A stretch of DNA of 64,000 nucleotides from Longimicrobiales bacterium (lineage in GTDB: Bacteria; Gemmatimonadota; Gemmatimonadetes; Longimicrobiales; Gaopeijiaceae). Below the pieces are notes generated by a model, which was not told the origin of the DNA, did not search any database, and worked only from the letters and a program-made list of their open reading frames with translations. The translations under genes were made by a program, and so were the position numbers. The stretch spans positions 1,024,001 through 1,088,000 of the forward strand of contig CBDBCF010000001.1 in NCBI GenBank assembly GCA_965202985.1, written 5' to 3'. This document shows, one piece after another, positions 1,511-10,321 of this stretch (the first letter of the stretch is position 1; every line of letters begins with the position of its first letter).

Positions 1511-2319
1511 GGCGCTTGGGCGCCTCCCGCCCCCGCCGGCGCGTTCCCCTCTTGAAACCGAGGCCGCACCGGCACGCCCAGGTCTTGCAGGGCGTCCTTG
1601 ATCCCGTCCACCGTCCACGCCGCCTGGTGGAAGATCGACGCCGCCAGCACGGCGTCGGCGCCGGCGTCGACCGCGCGGGCCATGTGGTCGGGCGACTCCG
1701 CTCCACCCGACGCGACGATCGGCACCGACGTCGCGGCGCGCACCTGCCGCACCAGCGTCAAGTCGTACCCCGTCCTGGTCCCGTCGCGGTCCACGCTGGT
1801 CAGCAGGATCTCGCCGGCCCCGGCTCGGGCCGCCGCCGTGGCCCACGCCACCGCATCCAAGCCCGTCGGCTCCGTGCCCGAGCGGACTATCACTTGGTAG
1901 CTTCCGTCGCCGGCCGCTGCCGCGTCCACGGCCACCACCACGCATTGGCTGCCGAAGCGGGCCGCCAGCTCCGAGAGCAGGTCGGGCCGACGCACGGCCG
2001 CCGTGTTGACCGCCACCTTGTCGGCCCCCGCTTCCAGAAGCGCCGCAGCGTCCTGGGTCCGAGTCACGCCGCCGCCGACCGCCAGGGGCACCGACAGCCG
2101 CTCGCGCACCGCCCGCACCGTCTGCAGCCGAGCGCTCCGGCCCTCGGAAGTGGCCGACACGTCCAGCACCACCACCTCGTCGGCCCCCTGCGCTTCGTAG
2201 AGGCCGGCAAGGGCGGCGGGGCTGCCTTGATCGGCAAGCTCCTTGAAGGCGACGCCCTTGACCACGCGGCCGTTTCGCACGTCGAGGCAAGGTACCACGC
2301 GGACGGGCAGACGGGTCAC
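1507..2319 (-). CDS. hisF: Imidazole glycerol phosphate synthase cyclase subunit
   Basis: RVVPCLDV..GRVVKG, GADKVAVNTAA, GAGEILLTSVDRDGT, ASGGA motifs. Confidence 0.95.
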   Translation of the reverse strand: MTRLPVRVVPCLDVRNGRVVKGVAFKELADQGSPAALAGLYEAQGADEVVVLDVSATSEGRSARLQTVRAVRERLSVPLAVGGGVTRTQDAAALLEAGADKVAVNTAAVRRPDLLSELAARFGSQCVVVAVDAAAAGDGSYQVIVRSGTEPTGLDAVAWATAAARAGAGEILLTSVDRDGTRTGYDLTLVRQVRAATSVPIVASGGAESPDHMARAVDAGADAVLAASIFHQAAWTVDGIKDALQDLGVPVRPRFQEGNAPAGAGGAQAP

Positions 2320-2933
2320 GCCGCCACCCAGCGCGAGAGCAGCGCGCGACCGTAGGCGCCCGAGAGTTCCGGGTGGAACTGGCAGGCCACCACGGCGCCG
2401 CGTTCGGCGGCCGCCAGGAAGGGACCTCCATAGTGCGACCAGGCCGAGCGCCAGGATGCCGCGTTCGCATTCGCCGGTCCAGTCAGTCGATACGAGTTCG
2501 CGAAGTAGGCGAAGCCCCTGGGGACGATCCGGCAACCGTCGTCGGGCACGACCTCGTTCCAGCCCATTTGGGGCACGCGCACCCCGTCGCCGTAGCGCTG
2601 GGCCACGCCGTTCAGCGCGCCCAGTCCGGGCGTCCCGGGCGCTTCTCGACTGCCGGCCGCCATCAGCTGCATCCCGAGACATATCCCCAGCGTGGGCCGT
2701 CCCGCGGCGATCCGGTCGCCAAGGGCCTCGGCCAAGCTGTCCGCCGCCACCGCCCTCCACGCGGCCGCGAAGGCGCCCACCCCCGGCAGCACGACGCGAG
2801 CGGCGCGGGCCACGGCGCGGGCATCCGATACGAAGCGCACGGCGCACCCGAGCCGCTCGAAGGCCACCCCGACCGAGGCCAAGTTTGCCGTGCTGGTGCG
2901 CACCACCGACACGGGGCGGGTCAGGGGCGTCAC
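2316..2933 (-). CDS. hisH: Imidazole glycerol phosphate synthase glutaminase subunit
   Basis: LPGVGAF, LGICLGMQ, PQMGWN, QFHPE. Confidence 0.95.
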   Translation of the reverse strand: MTPLTRPVSVVRTSTANLASVGVAFERLGCAVRFVSDARAVARAARVVLPGVGAFAAAWRAVAADSLAEALGDRIAAGRPTLGICLGMQLMAAGSREAPGTPGLGALNGVAQRYGDGVRVPQMGWNEVVPDDGCRIVPRGFAYFANSYRLTGPANANAASWRSAWSHYGGPFLAAAERGAVVACQFHPELSGAYGRALLSRWVAA

Positions 2934-3538
2934 AGCACCCCTTTGGTGGAGGGGACTTCGCCGGCCGGGACCGCCCCGCCGTCGCGCTTGGCGAAGGCCG
3001 CGCGGAGCGCCAAGGCCACGGACTTGAAGGCGGCCTCGGCGCGGTGGTGGTCGTTGGCGCCGCGGAGCACGTCCACGTGCAGCGCCAGCTTGGCTGCCTG
3101 GGCGAACGATTGGAAGAAGTGCGGGACCATCTCGCACGACATCGCGCCCAGCCGATCTCGGCGGAGCGTCAAGTCGCCCGCGAAGCACGGCCGACCCGAG
3201 GCGTCGGCCACGGCCCGAGCGAGCGCCTCGTCCAACGGAGCATAGGACCATCCGAAGCGCACGATCCCCTCTCGGCCCCCCAGCGCCTGGTCCACGGCGG
3301 CCCCCAATGCCAGCCCCACATCTTCCACGGTGTGGTGGTCGTCCACGTTCAGGTCGCCCTCGCAGGACACGTCCAGGTCCCAGCCGGCGTGGAACCCCAA
3401 GGCGTGGAGCACGTGGTCGAAGAAGCCGATGCCCGTGTCGGCGCGCACGGCGCCCGCGCCGTCCAACGTCACGCAAACCCGCACCCGGGTCTCGCCGGTG
3501 GCTCGCGCCGCCTCTGCGCGTCGGCCTTCGTCTTTCAT
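2930..3538 (-). CDS. hisB: Imidazoleglycerol-phosphate dehydratase (monofunctional)
   Basis: TGIGFFDH, DDHHTVED, NDHHRAEAAFK, C-terminal STKGVL. Confidence 0.95.
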   Translation of the reverse strand: MKDEGRRAEAARATGETRVRVCVTLDGAGAVRADTGIGFFDHVLHALGFHAGWDLDVSCEGDLNVDDHHTVEDVGLALGAAVDQALGGREGIVRFGWSYAPLDEALARAVADASGRPCFAGDLTLRRDRLGAMSCEMVPHFFQSFAQAAKLALHVDVLRGANDHHRAEAAFKSVALALRAAFAKRDGGAVPAGEVPSTKGVL

Positions 3539-5301
3539 GGCAGTACTCCTTCGAAGTCTGCGCTTGCGCGGACCATGCGAGCTGCGCCCGCCTGGTCCAG
3601 CGCGCAATGCATGCCGTTGCCAGCGCCGGGGGCCAAGACGCCGATCGGCACCACGCCGGCGCGCCGGGCCGCGTTCACGTCGTCGGGCGTGTCGCCCAGC
3701 ATCCACCCCGAGCGCGCGCGCAACTGGGTCATGGCGGCGCGCACGGGCGCCGGGTCCGGCTTGAGGGGGGCGTCCTCGCGGCACACCACGGCGCCGAAGA
3801 TGTCGCGGATCCGGTGCTCGTCCAGGAAGCGCTCGGCGTCTCGGCGCGGCCTGCCGGTGACCACGCCCAGCTTGAAGGAGCGCGCCAGCGCGGCCAAGTG
3901 TTCGCGATCGGGAACAAGTGTTTCGCGACGGCGCAGGCCGGGTGCCGAATCCGTGCCTTGGTAGGCCTCTTCGAAACGACGCCGGACCTGGGCGAGCGTT
4001 GCGGACACGCCGGCCTCGGCCAGCAATGTTTGCGTCAATGCCCAGTCGTCGTTGGCGTGGCCGCGGGCCTTGGCCGCCTCGATCTCCGCCGGGCCGGCGC
4101 GAACGCCGAACGACGCGCACGCCGCCACGATCGCTTCCCGGTAGGAACGGCTCACGTCGGCCAGCACGCCGTCCATGTCGAAGAGCACGGCTTCGGGTCG
4201 CATCAGGCAGCGCATGGCCTGCTCCAGCCGGTCGAACTCGCCGTCGTCGCGGGGGACGGTGATGCGCACGAACCCCGGCAGGTGCTCGAAGTGCCGGACC
4301 CGCACGCCCTGGGCCGCGAGCCCGCGCAGAACCCACTGGGCGCCCGAGTCGTCGAGAGCGGCCGTGCCGTCCCGAGCAACTGCGCCGCCCCCGGCAGCCG
4401 CGCCTTCCGCTGGATACCGGGCCAAGACGAAGTTCGTCCACGACGGCTGGGGCACGCCGCCCGTCTCGCGCACCAAAGCCGCAAGCCGCTCCCGGCCGGC
4501 CCGCGCGTAAGCCACGAACTTCCGCATCCGGGCTTGGCCCCGCTCCAACCGATCCCGCCCCAAAACCAGCGCGGGACCGCTCAGCGGATACGGGCCGCCG
4601 AACCCGCGCACCGCGGCAATCCGTTCCTGGGTACCCACGACGAAGCCGATGCGCAGTCCCGCCAGACCCCAGCACTTGGACATGGTGCGGATCTGCAACA
4701 CGTTCGGCAGGTCGGCCAGGACGCCGTCGTCCTCCGGGTTGCCGAACTCGGCGTAGGCCCGGTCCACCACCAGAGGTACGCCCTCGGGCAGGTCGCGCGC
4801 CAGTCCGGCCAACTCGTCCGCCGGGAACGCCCAGCCGGTCGGGTTGTCGGGAGACACGACGACGACCAAGCCAGTGCGCTCGTTCACGGCGTCGAGGATC
4901 GGGTCGCGGGGGAAGGTCCCCCATTCGTAATCCAGCGCCGCTAGCCGACCGCGGGCCATGCGGGCGTAGGCCGGGATCATGTAGAAGGTGGGAACCAGGT
5001 GGACTAGTTCGCGGTCCGGGTCCAGGTACGCGCGACAGACGCGATCGATTGCGTCGTCGGCGCCCGTGGTGGCCAGGACGCGCTCGGGGCCGACGCCCAA
5101 GTACGCAGCGTAGGCCTCCTCCAGCGGCGCGGGGTCGCCGTAGTCGCGGAGGATGCCGGGGCCCAGCCGACGCAAGAGGTCGAAGCATTCCTGCGGGGGC
5201 GGTTCGCCCTCGTTCATGGCCAGGTCGAGCACGGGCGCGGCGGGCCGAGCCGCCTCGAGGCCGGGCGGGGCCGGGCTGGGCTGGGCGAAGTCGGGCTTCA
5301 T
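3535..5301 (-). CDS. hisC: Histidinol-phosphate aminotransferase fused to a C-terminal HAD-family phosphatase
   Basis: LDLAMNE, SPDNPTG, DRAYAEF, RTMSKCWGLAGLRIG (PLP Lys); then FDMDGVL, VVTGR, KPDP, GDTPDD (HAD motifs I-IV) in the same frame. Confidence 0.9.
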   Translation of the reverse strand: MKPDFAQPSPAPPGLEAARPAAPVLDLAMNEGEPPPQECFDLLRRLGPGILRDYGDPAPLEEAYAAYLGVGPERVLATTGADDAIDRVCRAYLDPDRELVHLVPTFYMIPAYARMARGRLAALDYEWGTFPRDPILDAVNERTGLVVVVSPDNPTGWAFPADELAGLARDLPEGVPLVVDRAYAEFGNPEDDGVLADLPNVLQIRTMSKCWGLAGLRIGFVVGTQERIAAVRGFGGPYPLSGPALVLGRDRLERGQARMRKFVAYARAGRERLAALVRETGGVPQPSWTNFVLARYPAEGAAAGGGAVARDGTAALDDSGAQWVLRGLAAQGVRVRHFEHLPGFVRITVPRDDGEFDRLEQAMRCLMRPEAVLFDMDGVLADVSRSYREAIVAACASFGVRAGPAEIEAAKARGHANDDWALTQTLLAEAGVSATLAQVRRRFEEAYQGTDSAPGLRRRETLVPDREHLAALARSFKLGVVTGRPRRDAERFLDEHRIRDIFGAVVCREDAPLKPDPAPVRAAMTQLRARSGWMLGDTPDDVNAARRAGVVPIGVLAPGAGNGMHCALDQAGAARMVRASADFEGVLP

Positions 5302-6179
5302 GGCACGATCTGTCGAGGCCGCGAGACCACCAAGTCGGTGGCGCCCCGGGCTTTCGCGTCCAAGAGCAGCGCGGGCAGCCCTCTGCGCGGCACGGCGGCA
5401 CGGATCGCGTACCCTCCGTCGCCGTGGAGCCGCGACACGGTCGGTTCGCGCATGCACGGCAGCACCGACGCCACCTCGTCGAAGTCGGCTTCCGACACGT
5501 TGAGCTCGAGCATGACCCGGCTGCGCGCCGCCAGTACCGACGAGAGCAGCAAGACCAAGTCCTCCACCAAGCGCCTGCAACTGGGGTTGGCCAACGAGGC
5601 CCGGTTGGCGTAGAGCCGAGTGGAGGAGCGCATGAGGGTGTCCGCCACCGTCAGCCCGTTCTGTCGCAGGGTGGCGCCGCTCGCCACGTTGTCCACGATC
5701 AGGTCCGCGTCTTCGGGCGGGAAGACTTCGGTGGCTCCGTACGAGCGGACGAAGACGGCGTCGAAGGGCTGGTCGGCGATCCATGCCTCTGCGAGTCGGG
5801 CGTACTCGGACGCCACTACCAACGGCCGGTCCGCCCGAACGCGACCGTCGGAAAGCAGGCTGTCCGGCGCCGCCGCAACCACGCGAACGGGGTCCAGTCC
5901 CGTGTCCAGCAGCTCCACCAAGTCCGCGTCCAGCTCCGCAACCCAGTCGGCTCCTGCGAACCCGGCGTCCCGGGAGCCGGCCTGCAGCATCTCCACGACG
6001 TTTCGCGGATTCAGGAGCTTGGCCTGGAAGCCCGCTAGCGAGAGCGACGGACGGTAGCTCCGCTCGCCGAGATGAACGTCCACGCCCGCGTCGGCCAGGA
6101 GGCCCATGACGCCGGCCTGCATCCGTCCCTTGGGCAAGGCGATCCGGGCCGCCGCTCGGGCGCCGTCGGCTCGGCTCAC
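5298..6179 (-). CDS. hisG: ATP phosphoribosyltransferase, long form
   Basis: IALPKGR, YGATE, DLIVDNVASGATLRQNGL, C-terminal regulatory domain (PTVS..GATDLVV). Confidence 0.95.
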   Translation of the reverse strand: MSRADGARAAARIALPKGRMQAGVMGLLADAGVDVHLGERSYRPSLSLAGFQAKLLNPRNVVEMLQAGSRDAGFAGADWVAELDADLVELLDTGLDPVRVVAAAPDSLLSDGRVRADRPLVVASEYARLAEAWIADQPFDAVFVRSYGATEVFPPEDADLIVDNVASGATLRQNGLTVADTLMRSSTRLYANRASLANPSCRRLVEDLVLLLSSVLAARSRVMLELNVSEADFDEVASVLPCMREPTVSRLHGDGGYAIRAAVPRRGLPALLLDAKARGATDLVVSRPRQIVP

Positions 6180-7129
6180 GGGCCGCTGGCCTCGTCAAAG
6201 CCGATCCGCTCCTTTACGAAGTAGAGCGGGCGCGCCATGGCTTCCCGCTGCACGCGCCCGAGCTGCTCGCCCAGGATTCCAAGCGCCAGCATCTGGAGGC
6301 CGCCGACGCAAAGGAACGCGGCCAGCACAATCTTCCACGCTCCGGCCTGACCGGCGCCCAGCAGGCTCGTCGCGACGTCTCCCAAGGGCACGGCCGCCGC
6401 CCCCAGCAGCAGCAGCACTCCGACCATCAAGACGAAGCGGACGGGCGTCGTGGAGAACGACAGGACGGCATCCGCGGCTGTCTCGAACCGTGTCCGCAAC
6501 GTGTAGTTCGGCTTGCGTCCCTTAAGCGGCGGCTGCCGCCTGAAGTAAGCCGGCTCGTGGCGATACCCGATCCAGGGAGTCATGCCCCGCAGGAACGGAG
6601 TGCGTTCGGGCATGGCCAAGAGAGCGTCCACCACCTTTCGGTCCATGAGACGGAAGTTGCCCGCGTCAATGGGCATGTGGCCCGACGCCAGAAAACGCTG
6701 CACGCGGTAGAAGGCGGCGGCCAAGAAGCGCTTGAGCAACGGTTCGCCGTCGCGCCCGGTTCGCACTCCGTAGACCACGTCAGCGCCGTTCTTCCAGCGG
6801 TCCAGCATTTCGTGGACGACATCGGGCGGGTCCTGCAGGTCGGCGTCGATGACGACGGCGGCGGCGCCGTTCGTCGCCGCCAAGCCCGCGAACTGGGCGA
6901 TCTCCTGGCCGAAGTTGCGCGAGAGCGACACCACCCTCACGCGATCGTCGTTGCCCCGAAGCTCGCGAAGCAGTTCGAGCGTGGCGTCCGTGCTGCCGTC
7001 GTCCACGTACACGAACTCGACGCGCTCGGGAACGCCCGCCAAGCTCCCGGCAAGGCGGCGGTGCGCTTCCCGGATGATCTCGGCTTCGTTGAAGCAGGGA
7101 ACCACGACCGACAGAGACGTCCCTGTCAT
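6176..7129 (-). CDS. GT2 glycosyltransferase (polyprenol-phosphate sugar transferase, GtrB/YkoT-like)
   Basis: SVVVPCFNE, VDDGSTD, LSRNFG, IDADLQDPP, two C-terminal hydrophobic helices, RPLY; purine-rich SD before ATG 7129. Confidence 0.9.
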   Translation of the reverse strand: MTGTSLSVVVPCFNEAEIIREAHRRLAGSLAGVPERVEFVYVDDGSTDATLELLRELRGNDDRVRVVSLSRNFGQEIAQFAGLAATNGAAAVVIDADLQDPPDVVHEMLDRWKNGADVVYGVRTGRDGEPLLKRFLAAAFYRVQRFLASGHMPIDAGNFRLMDRKVVDALLAMPERTPFLRGMTPWIGYRHEPAYFRRQPPLKGRKPNYTLRTRFETAADAVLSFSTTPVRFVLMVGVLLLLGAAAVPLGDVATSLLGAGQAGAWKIVLAAFLCVGGLQMLALGILGEQLGRVQREAMARPLYFVKERIGFDEASGP

Positions 7130-9296: not shown

Positions 9297-9764
9297 TCAG
9301 CCGTCGGTGGTCTCCACTTCCGTCGTGATGTCGATGCACCGGTGCAGTGTTCGGTAGACGGGACAGCGCATGGGGTGCACCTCGAAGGCGCGTTGGACAA
9401 CCTCCGGGTCGGCGCCGGCGGCCTTCAACGCGTACTTCACGTGAATCCGTCGGATCACCAAGACGCCCTCGTCCTTGCCGACCTTGCCGTGCACCTCCGC
9501 CGTCAGCCGTCCGTCCGAAGCGTCGATCCCGCGTGCCTCCAGCACGCCTCCGAAGGTGCCGACGAGTCAGCCGCCGGTGGCGGCCATCACGTAGTCCAGC
9601 GTGGTCGTGGTGTCTGCCGCCGCGCGCGCGCCGTAGTGCTCGGCGATGGCGCCGTGGACGCCGAACTCCACGGGACCGTCGCGGGCGGGCAGGTAGGCCA
9701 GGCGGTGCGGCCCGCGAGTGCGCTCGATGCGGATGCGGGCTTCGTAGACCATGGCGTCGCTCAC
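9297..9764 (-). CDS. OsmC/Ohr-family protein with in-frame TGA (9567-9569), candidate selenoprotein
   Basis: ORFs 9567..10169 and 9297..9545 share a frame; joined sequence LDYVMAATGG-(TGA)-LVGTFGGVLEARGI...HPMRCPVYRTL puts TGA at the first OsmC Cys; GTG start at 9764 overlaps the upstream TGA. Confidence 0.85.
9537..9566 (-). promoter_or_regulatory. Putative bacterial SECIS hairpin directly 3' of the UGA
   Basis: mRNA CUCGUCGGCACCUUCGGAGGCGUGCUGGAG folds by eye into a lower stem UCGGCA/UGCUGG and an upper stem CCU/AGG closing a UCGG loop. Confidence 0.6.
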
Positions 9765-10321
9765 GGCCAGAGCCATCCGAACACGGCGCCGGTGATGACG
9801 GCGTAGACCAACCCGTCCACGGCGTGCTTGACGGCGACCTTGCCGGGCAACCCGAACCAGATGCTCTCTTGCACGCCGACGAAGCCGTAGGCCAGGAACG
9901 CCGCCAGCCCCGTGACGTGGAACACCTCGGCAAAGTGCGCCTCGGTCCCGACGACCCCGGCCGCCAAGAGAGCGATCACGGCGTTGATGGCCGCGTACTG
10001 CAGGAACGCCTTGATCAGCGCGGACCGCATGTCGAGCGCCGACTTGGGGTCGCGCACGCGCAGGATGCCGACGGGGCCGGCCCGCACCTTGTCCTTGTAC
10101 GCGTCCGCGTTCTCTTGCCCCCACTTGGCGAAGGGGAAGTAGTACATGCCCGGCGCGACGCCCACGCACTTGCGCACGGCGTCCATGAGCCCGTCCTCGT
10201 CCTCGGCTTCGGCGAAGTCCTTCTTGTGGTGCGGCATCGCCATCCAGACCACGGCGCTGGCCACGAACACGGCGACCGTGGCCACGAGCGCCGGCAGCCA
10301 GAGGGCGGTGGCGTGGATCAT
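9761..10321 (-). CDS. Uncharacterised membrane protein (about 4 TM)
   Basis: Hydrophobic segments, MPHHKKD and PGMYYFP motifs, strong SD (GAAGGAAGGAG) upstream, coding-like codon bias. Confidence 0.8.
   Translation of the reverse strand: MIHATALWLPALVATVAVFVASAVVWMAMPHHKKDFAEAEDEDGLMDAVRKCVGVAPGMYYFPFAKWGQENADAYKDKVRAGPVGILRVRDPKSALDMRSALIKAFLQYAAINAVIALLAAGVVGTEAHFAEVFHVTGLAAFLAYGFVGVQESIWFGLPGKVAVKHAVDGLVYAVITGAVFGWLWP

Follow-up and report, generated by a model that had tools for sequence, protein, structure and literature searches.

A predicted selenocysteine-containing protein of the OsmC/Ohr fold, encoded across an in-frame UGA in a Longimicrobiales bacterium

The stretch examined here (the window) comprises 64,000 nucleotides of a Longimicrobiales genome of 3.86 Mb that is 92% complete. 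On its minus strand, the frame from 9764 to 9297 is interrupted by one internal TGA, at residue 66, and gives a protein of 155 residues when this codon is read through (Table 1). In the list of open reading frames the gene appears as two entries, 9567..10169 and 9297..9545, and translation confirmed the proposal of the initial annotation that these belong to a single frame split by a lone TGA. The readthrough product carries the motifs ...LDYVMAATGG-U-LVGTFGG... and ...HPMRCPVY.... Coding-like signal had also been described on either side of the UGA, and this held: GC at codon positions 1, 2 and 3 was 0.74, 0.55 and 0.94 before the TGA and 0.71, 0.44 and 0.87 after it, and by their third-position composition both halves look coding-like.

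The GTG start overlaps the stop TGA of an upstream gene for a hydrophobic protein of 186 residues; an ATG is found near this start position in 35/35 closest relatives. The upstream gene is directly adjacent in 31 of these 35 relatives and at none of the other loci searched, and its product matched nothing in Pfam or NCBIfam. The two genes are likely co-transcribed. Elsewhere in the window, the minus-strand ORF run at 2316-6179 presumably corresponds to histidine biosynthesis genes, and the frame at 3535-6198 seemingly ends in an aminotransferase with a HAD-type phosphatase joined to it, after which comes a distinct hisB-like frame.

Table 1. Features of the OsmC-like gene, its upstream neighbour and its paralog (window positions unless a contig or locus is named)
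Feature	Position	Strand	Basis or remark
OsmC/Ohr-fold protein gene, predicted intact, 155 aa	9297..9764	-	readthrough of one TGA; likely GTG start
In-frame UGA, codon 66, predicted Sec at peroxidatic-Cys position	9567..9569	-	codon column in relatives
SECIS-type hairpin, 7-bp stem, GGA loop (9538-9540)	9531..9547	-	covariation; loss in Cys genes
Cys134 of CPV motif, putative resolving Cys	9363..9365	-	Cys codon in 80/80 genome loci (best 80 of 453); invariant in 71 aligned proteins
Subfamily signature His37, His43-Tyr44, Asp57; candidate active-site helpers	9594..9656	-	alignment of 71 proteins
Terminal TGA of OsmC-like gene	9297-9299	-	
186-aa hydrophobic protein, no family	9761..10321	-	stop overlaps start of OsmC-like gene
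Second OsmC-like gene (paralog)	C1:129277-129714; locus L098:5245-5727	-	35% identical, TGA at same column

The codon corresponding to residue 66 was then read in relatives. Among the best 80 of 453 confirmed stretches from a genome scan, which derive from Gemmatimonadota and Acidobacteriota, the column held TGA in 79 and TGT in 1. A metagenome scan was seeded with Cys homologues, and in the best 80 of its 540 loci the column held TGA in 65 and TGC or TGT in 15. Sampling of the phylum returned the gene in 49 of 201 genomes, 28 of which have two copies; every one of the 77 matches has a TGA inside it, and the 20 that were read at the DNA level have it at the codon-66 column in every case. TGG was not seen in any of the 180 DNA loci (80 genome, 20 phylum, 80 metagenome). 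The column is thus occupied in DNA by TGA or a Cys codon, the pairing that the initial annotation had suggested looking for in homologues, and in profile alignment it falls on the first Cys of the OsmC (1ukk) and YhfA-like (1ml8) chains, as expected for a UGA at the first catalytic Cys.

Of the 120 hits listed from the protein database, 18 were full length, 17 were N-terminal halves and 85 were C-terminal halves, with 16 of the 17 N-terminal halves stopping exactly before the UGA codon; the prediction that standard callers would split the gene is borne out by these 102 halves. The same 102 entries, ending or starting near codon 66, are what would be seen if the TGA were a true stop, whether through pseudogene formation, natural splitting of the protein into two pieces or misassembly. 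We regard this as very improbable. The same single TGA is kept at the catalytic column in Gemmatimonadota and Acidobacteriota, in both paralog clades and down to ~30% identity; a break there would cut the central helix (residues 55-77 of the structural model), intact Cys orthologues exist, and independent contigs have the same codon. Because it is conserved in two phyla, the TGA is not a sequencing error. The codon is also covered by assembled contigs (not raw reads) of four runs from four studies, with no differing letter among the rows listed. Near-identical DNA occurs in runs labelled sponge and marine metagenome, and the nearest relatives of the gene are labelled Longimicrobiales or Gemmatimonadota.

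The 18 full-length database proteins have Cys (7), Trp (7), Ala (1) or Leu (1) at the column, the remaining 2 being frame-disturbed. Because two of the Trp-bearing proteins, P0004 and P0012, also have Trp where other homologues end, the Trp entries appear to come from gene callers translating TGA as Trp. A wider profile search of 1.84 billion representatives gave 685 at E values up to 1e-10; when the best 150 of these are taken together with the query, the column is spanned by 99 rows, of which 76 (the query row included) have Cys there and 23 do not. At the first redox position, P0007, P0011 and these 23 rows carry Ser, Gly, Ala, Leu, Asp or Arg, and several such members also have Ser at the second. 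They are possibly non-redox members or sequence errors.

The genome was searched for selA, selB, selC and selD, all of which were found above curated cut-offs: SelA at 402 bits, SelB at 309 bits and including winged-helix domains 2 and 3 of the SECIS-binding type, SelD at 379 bits and a tRNA-Sec with anticodon UCA. Among ordinary stops TGA is also the most frequent, with 389 of 623 long coding-like ORFs ending in it; as the initial annotation had anticipated, recoding would therefore be site-specific. Selenocysteine use is common in the phylum, since SelA was matched in 161 of the 201 sampled genomes. SelA was present in 49/49 genomes that bear the OsmC-like gene, and the gene was in 0/40 genomes without a SelA match; this co-occurrence is supportive and carries no statistical test, SelA being common and related genomes not being independent. 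All five further genomes examined also had SelA, that with the TGT gene among them. Reading of the UGA as Trp or Cys, through code reassignment or near-cognate readthrough, would explain the Trp in seven full-length database proteins, but TGA remains the main stop, TGG is missing from all 180 DNA loci, P0004 and P0012 look as if every TGA had been read as Trp, a tRNA-Sec is present and the hairpin described below tracks TGA. This reading is scarcely credible to us.

The genome presumably encodes other selenoproteins. We take these to include a formate-dehydrogenase-like gene near C1 59937 (plus strand; ...SRA-U-HAP...) and a peroxiredoxin-like gene near C1 1693072 (minus strand; ...GHW-U-PHC...). 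The selD gene (C1 1645220-1646140, minus strand) itself contains an in-frame TGA and is a further likely selenoprotein gene.

A SECIS-type hairpin follows the UGA at +20 to +36, with its GGA loop at +27 to +29 (a spacing of 26 nt) and an energy of -9.7 to -11.3 kcal/mol. It fits the bacterial consensus that PMC13188914 states in the legend to its Fig. 2. The initial annotation had placed a hairpin with a G-containing loop in the first 30 nt after the UGA: the loop is GGA and the pairing covaries, but the element lies further downstream. Its suggestion of a folding check gave a divided answer, as folding energy was not significantly beyond chance in four windows (z = -1.83, -0.80, 0.02 and -0.09), while fit to the consensus and covariation support the structure. 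A loose bacterial-SECIS rule also matched 71 of the 389 ordinary TGA stops; the exact hairpin type of the OsmC-like gene matched 0/389.

Pairing was kept in 559 of 560 cells over 80 distinct sequences, and 2 of the 7 base pairs changed on both sides (C-G/U-A in 20 sequences and G-C/A-U in 12). None of 500 shuffles matched the pairing, the count of both-sided cells or the covariation score, and all slid controls were exceeded too; the count of two covarying pairs was reached by 433/500 shuffles. RNAalifold recovered the same hairpin unaided. At codons +8 and +11, only three combinations occurred in 100 loci, namely GCG/GCG (Ala/Ala) in 52, GTG/GCA (Val/Ala, the type of the window gene) in 35 and GCA/GTG (Ala/Val) in 13, so that each change to Val is paired with a synonymous change on the opposite arm of the hairpin. 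The two compensatory pairs may each represent only one or two events. In the best 80 of the 540 metagenome loci, the hairpin with its GG loop was intact in 63/65 TGA genes and 0/15 Cys genes, the latter mostly from one clade. Glu at the loop codon was similarly frequent in the aligned proteins (66/71) and less so in Cys representatives (16/47). One TGT member (L088:3992-4462) lies beside a TGA member in the tree, retains an intact hairpin and comes from a SelA-positive genome, which suggests a recent Sec-to-Cys change. We judge the hairpin to be real because of its covariation and its loss in Cys homologues, not because of its folding energy.

The Pfam OsmC family (PF02566) matched residues 52-149, across the UGA, at 53 bits (cut-off 27.5), and the predicted structure (pLDDT 95.5) is an OsmC/Ohr fold over its whole length, with residue 66 in the central helix. 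Two conserved redox residues about 60 residues apart are the hallmark of the OsmC/Ohr superfamily according to the part of PMC5384416 consulted, and the window protein has two in Sec66 and Cys134. The OsmC/Ohr-like identity proposed by the initial annotation therefore stands at the level of fold; the protein belongs to a separate subfamily, which is neither Ohr/OsmC proper nor the reported Sec-OsmC family. In an alignment of 71 proteins, His37 and Asp57 are invariant and His43 is present in 66; full-length Cys representatives have His37 in 35/47 and Asp57 in 43/47, the other 4 having Glu. Gly at +3 from Sec occurs in 71/71 and Thr at +4 in 70/71. Arg21, a possible counterpart of the catalytic Arg next to the peroxidatic residue in Ohr/OsmC, is Arg in 67/71 and Arg or Lys in Cys representatives.

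Identity to Ohr and OsmC proper (TIGR03561 and TIGR03562; Xylella Ohr, E. coli OsmC) is 12-18%, with Sec in place of Cys; TIGR03562 scored 22.7 bits against a cut-off of 85.8, TIGR03561 gave no match at E 0.01, and no model in NCBIfam 20.0 was passed by the window protein. Xylella Ohr has Glu51, Cys61 and Cys125 in the section of PMC5962072 consulted, to which the 68-residue spacing of Sec66 and Cys134 may be compared. The catalytic Glu found in Ohr 10 residues before the peroxidatic Cys is absent from the subfamily, where this position is Leu, Ile or Val in 71/71 and is followed by Asp at -9. Relative to YhfA and the "Ohr-like" third group (1ml8, 2onf and 2opl), the window protein has an extra short His-containing helix (38-43) and a signature of its own; an ordinary YhfA-like Cys gene is encoded separately in the genome (C1:1915525-1915818).

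As the initial annotation stated, OsmC-like proteins with Sec are already on record: Zhang, Fomenko and Gladyshev predicted them in 2005 (PMC1088965). They recur in later catalogues, and in the parts of these sources consulted Sec-OsmC is listed once, as UxxT, in PMC2398784, PMC9312934, Table 1 of PMC13188914 and a supplement row of PMC12013277. Among the 119 entries tabulated in the 2026 review (PMC13188914), OsmC is represented by UxxT only. The window protein resembles the 2005 family in its PF02566 fold, in the in-frame UGA with Sec at the first conserved Cys and in a second Cys about 70 residues later. It differs in its motifs: the published representatives, so far as the excerpts extend, have GIGF-U-LLT and GCFAE, whereas the window protein has ATGG-U-LVGT (UxxGT, with Gly rather than Thr at +3) and RCPVY, and also an N-terminal GVHG..AEHY segment. 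NCBIfam NF041052 (OsmC_like_Se), which from its name probably models the 2005 family, gave 18 bits against a cut-off of 95, and the best E value among 19 homologues was 0.0006. The motifs of the subfamily were not found in three selenoprotein supplements, that of BSepDB being covered in part only. No description of the subfamily was found in the literature covered, which included few subscription papers; one may nonetheless have been published. PMC13188914, in the portion consulted, takes differing Sec motifs as the mark of separate subfamilies, and by that rule the group of the window protein would count as new.

Taken together, we consider it probable that the locus is one intact gene, in which the UGA very likely encodes Sec at the reactive site of an OsmC/Ohr-fold protein, predicted to be a selenol/thiol peroxidase. 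In the proposed decoding step, which is strongly supported, SelB carrying Sec-tRNA(UCA) would bind the hairpin with the GGA loop, 20-36 nt downstream of the UGA, and Sec would be inserted at codon 66, other UGAs remaining stops. Judging from the fold, the protein would form a homodimer of the Ohr/OsmC type. Sec66 would attack the hydroperoxide and then condense with Cys134 to a selenenylsulfide, which would be re-reduced by a dithiol, e.g. a lipoyl group; because the catalytic Glu of Ohr is absent, His37, His43 and Asp57 may take over activation. The peroxidase activity is proposed by analogy with the fold. Also counting for this reading, the four listed Acidobacteriota loci (L074, L084, L087 and L093) have upstream a second TGA-containing gene, a peroxiredoxin-like ORF whose in-frame TGA lies in a UxxC motif (...RSADW-U-PFC...); this ORF has a hairpin of its own and continues into a further domain.

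Against this reading stand the missing Glu, the 23/99 representatives that are non-Cys at the first redox column, and an Ohr-like protein without peroxidase activity described in PMC5384416, which, in the part consulted, calls Ohr-like proteins lacking the Arg and Glu poorly characterised. A selenoprotein that is not a peroxidase, using Sec66, Cys134 and the histidines in disulfide or persulfide exchange, sulfur or selenium transfer or metal binding, is a possible if doubtful alternative. It would suit the loss of the Ohr/OsmC Glu and the subfamily-specific His37, Asp57 and His43, and it draws on the top structural matches of the model (2onf and 1ml8), which are uncharacterised, on the YhfA-type proteins, described as being without established activity in the part of PMC8945050 consulted, and on the retention of both paralogs in 28 of the 49 genomes. 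Yet neither catalytic position has been lost and the fold is kept throughout, those Ohr and OsmC proteins that have been characterised act as peroxidases, and no conserved neighbourhood indicates a sulfur or metal pathway.

The paralog in the same genome carries the Ala/Val form of the hairpin, and the ten genes of its type form one clade with a support of 100 in a quick tree, on which 7 changes are required to account for the distribution of Sec and Cys. By sequence look, the paralog lies downstream of TRAP transporter membrane-like genes. A broader joint reading, which we offer as speculation and think unlikely as a whole, would make these genes a second lineage in which Sec arose independently within the OsmC fold, and an old two-paralog family among the larger unannotated bacterial selenoprotein families, with a His37/His43/Asp57 site whose chemistry is other than Ohr-type peroxide reduction and a SECIS hairpin that fixed the GALEAR stretch and steered the paired Ala-to-Val changes.

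Sec at this position of the OsmC fold has thus been predicted since 2005, and the subfamily is absent from the selenoprotein catalogues checked, in the portions covered. It is an addition to the selenoprotein catalogue, and one that is widespread in the sampled phylum genomes (about a quarter carry it, many in two copies). The general mechanism is textbook, so specialists would probably welcome the finding without being surprised by it. The hairpin also illustrates cleanly how an RNA signal can constrain a coding sequence. A systematic annotation error, by which most of the listed homologues are stored as halves, is corrected. With matched Sec and Cys members at hand, the function of the "third group" of OsmC-fold proteins, which is poorly understood, can be tested directly.
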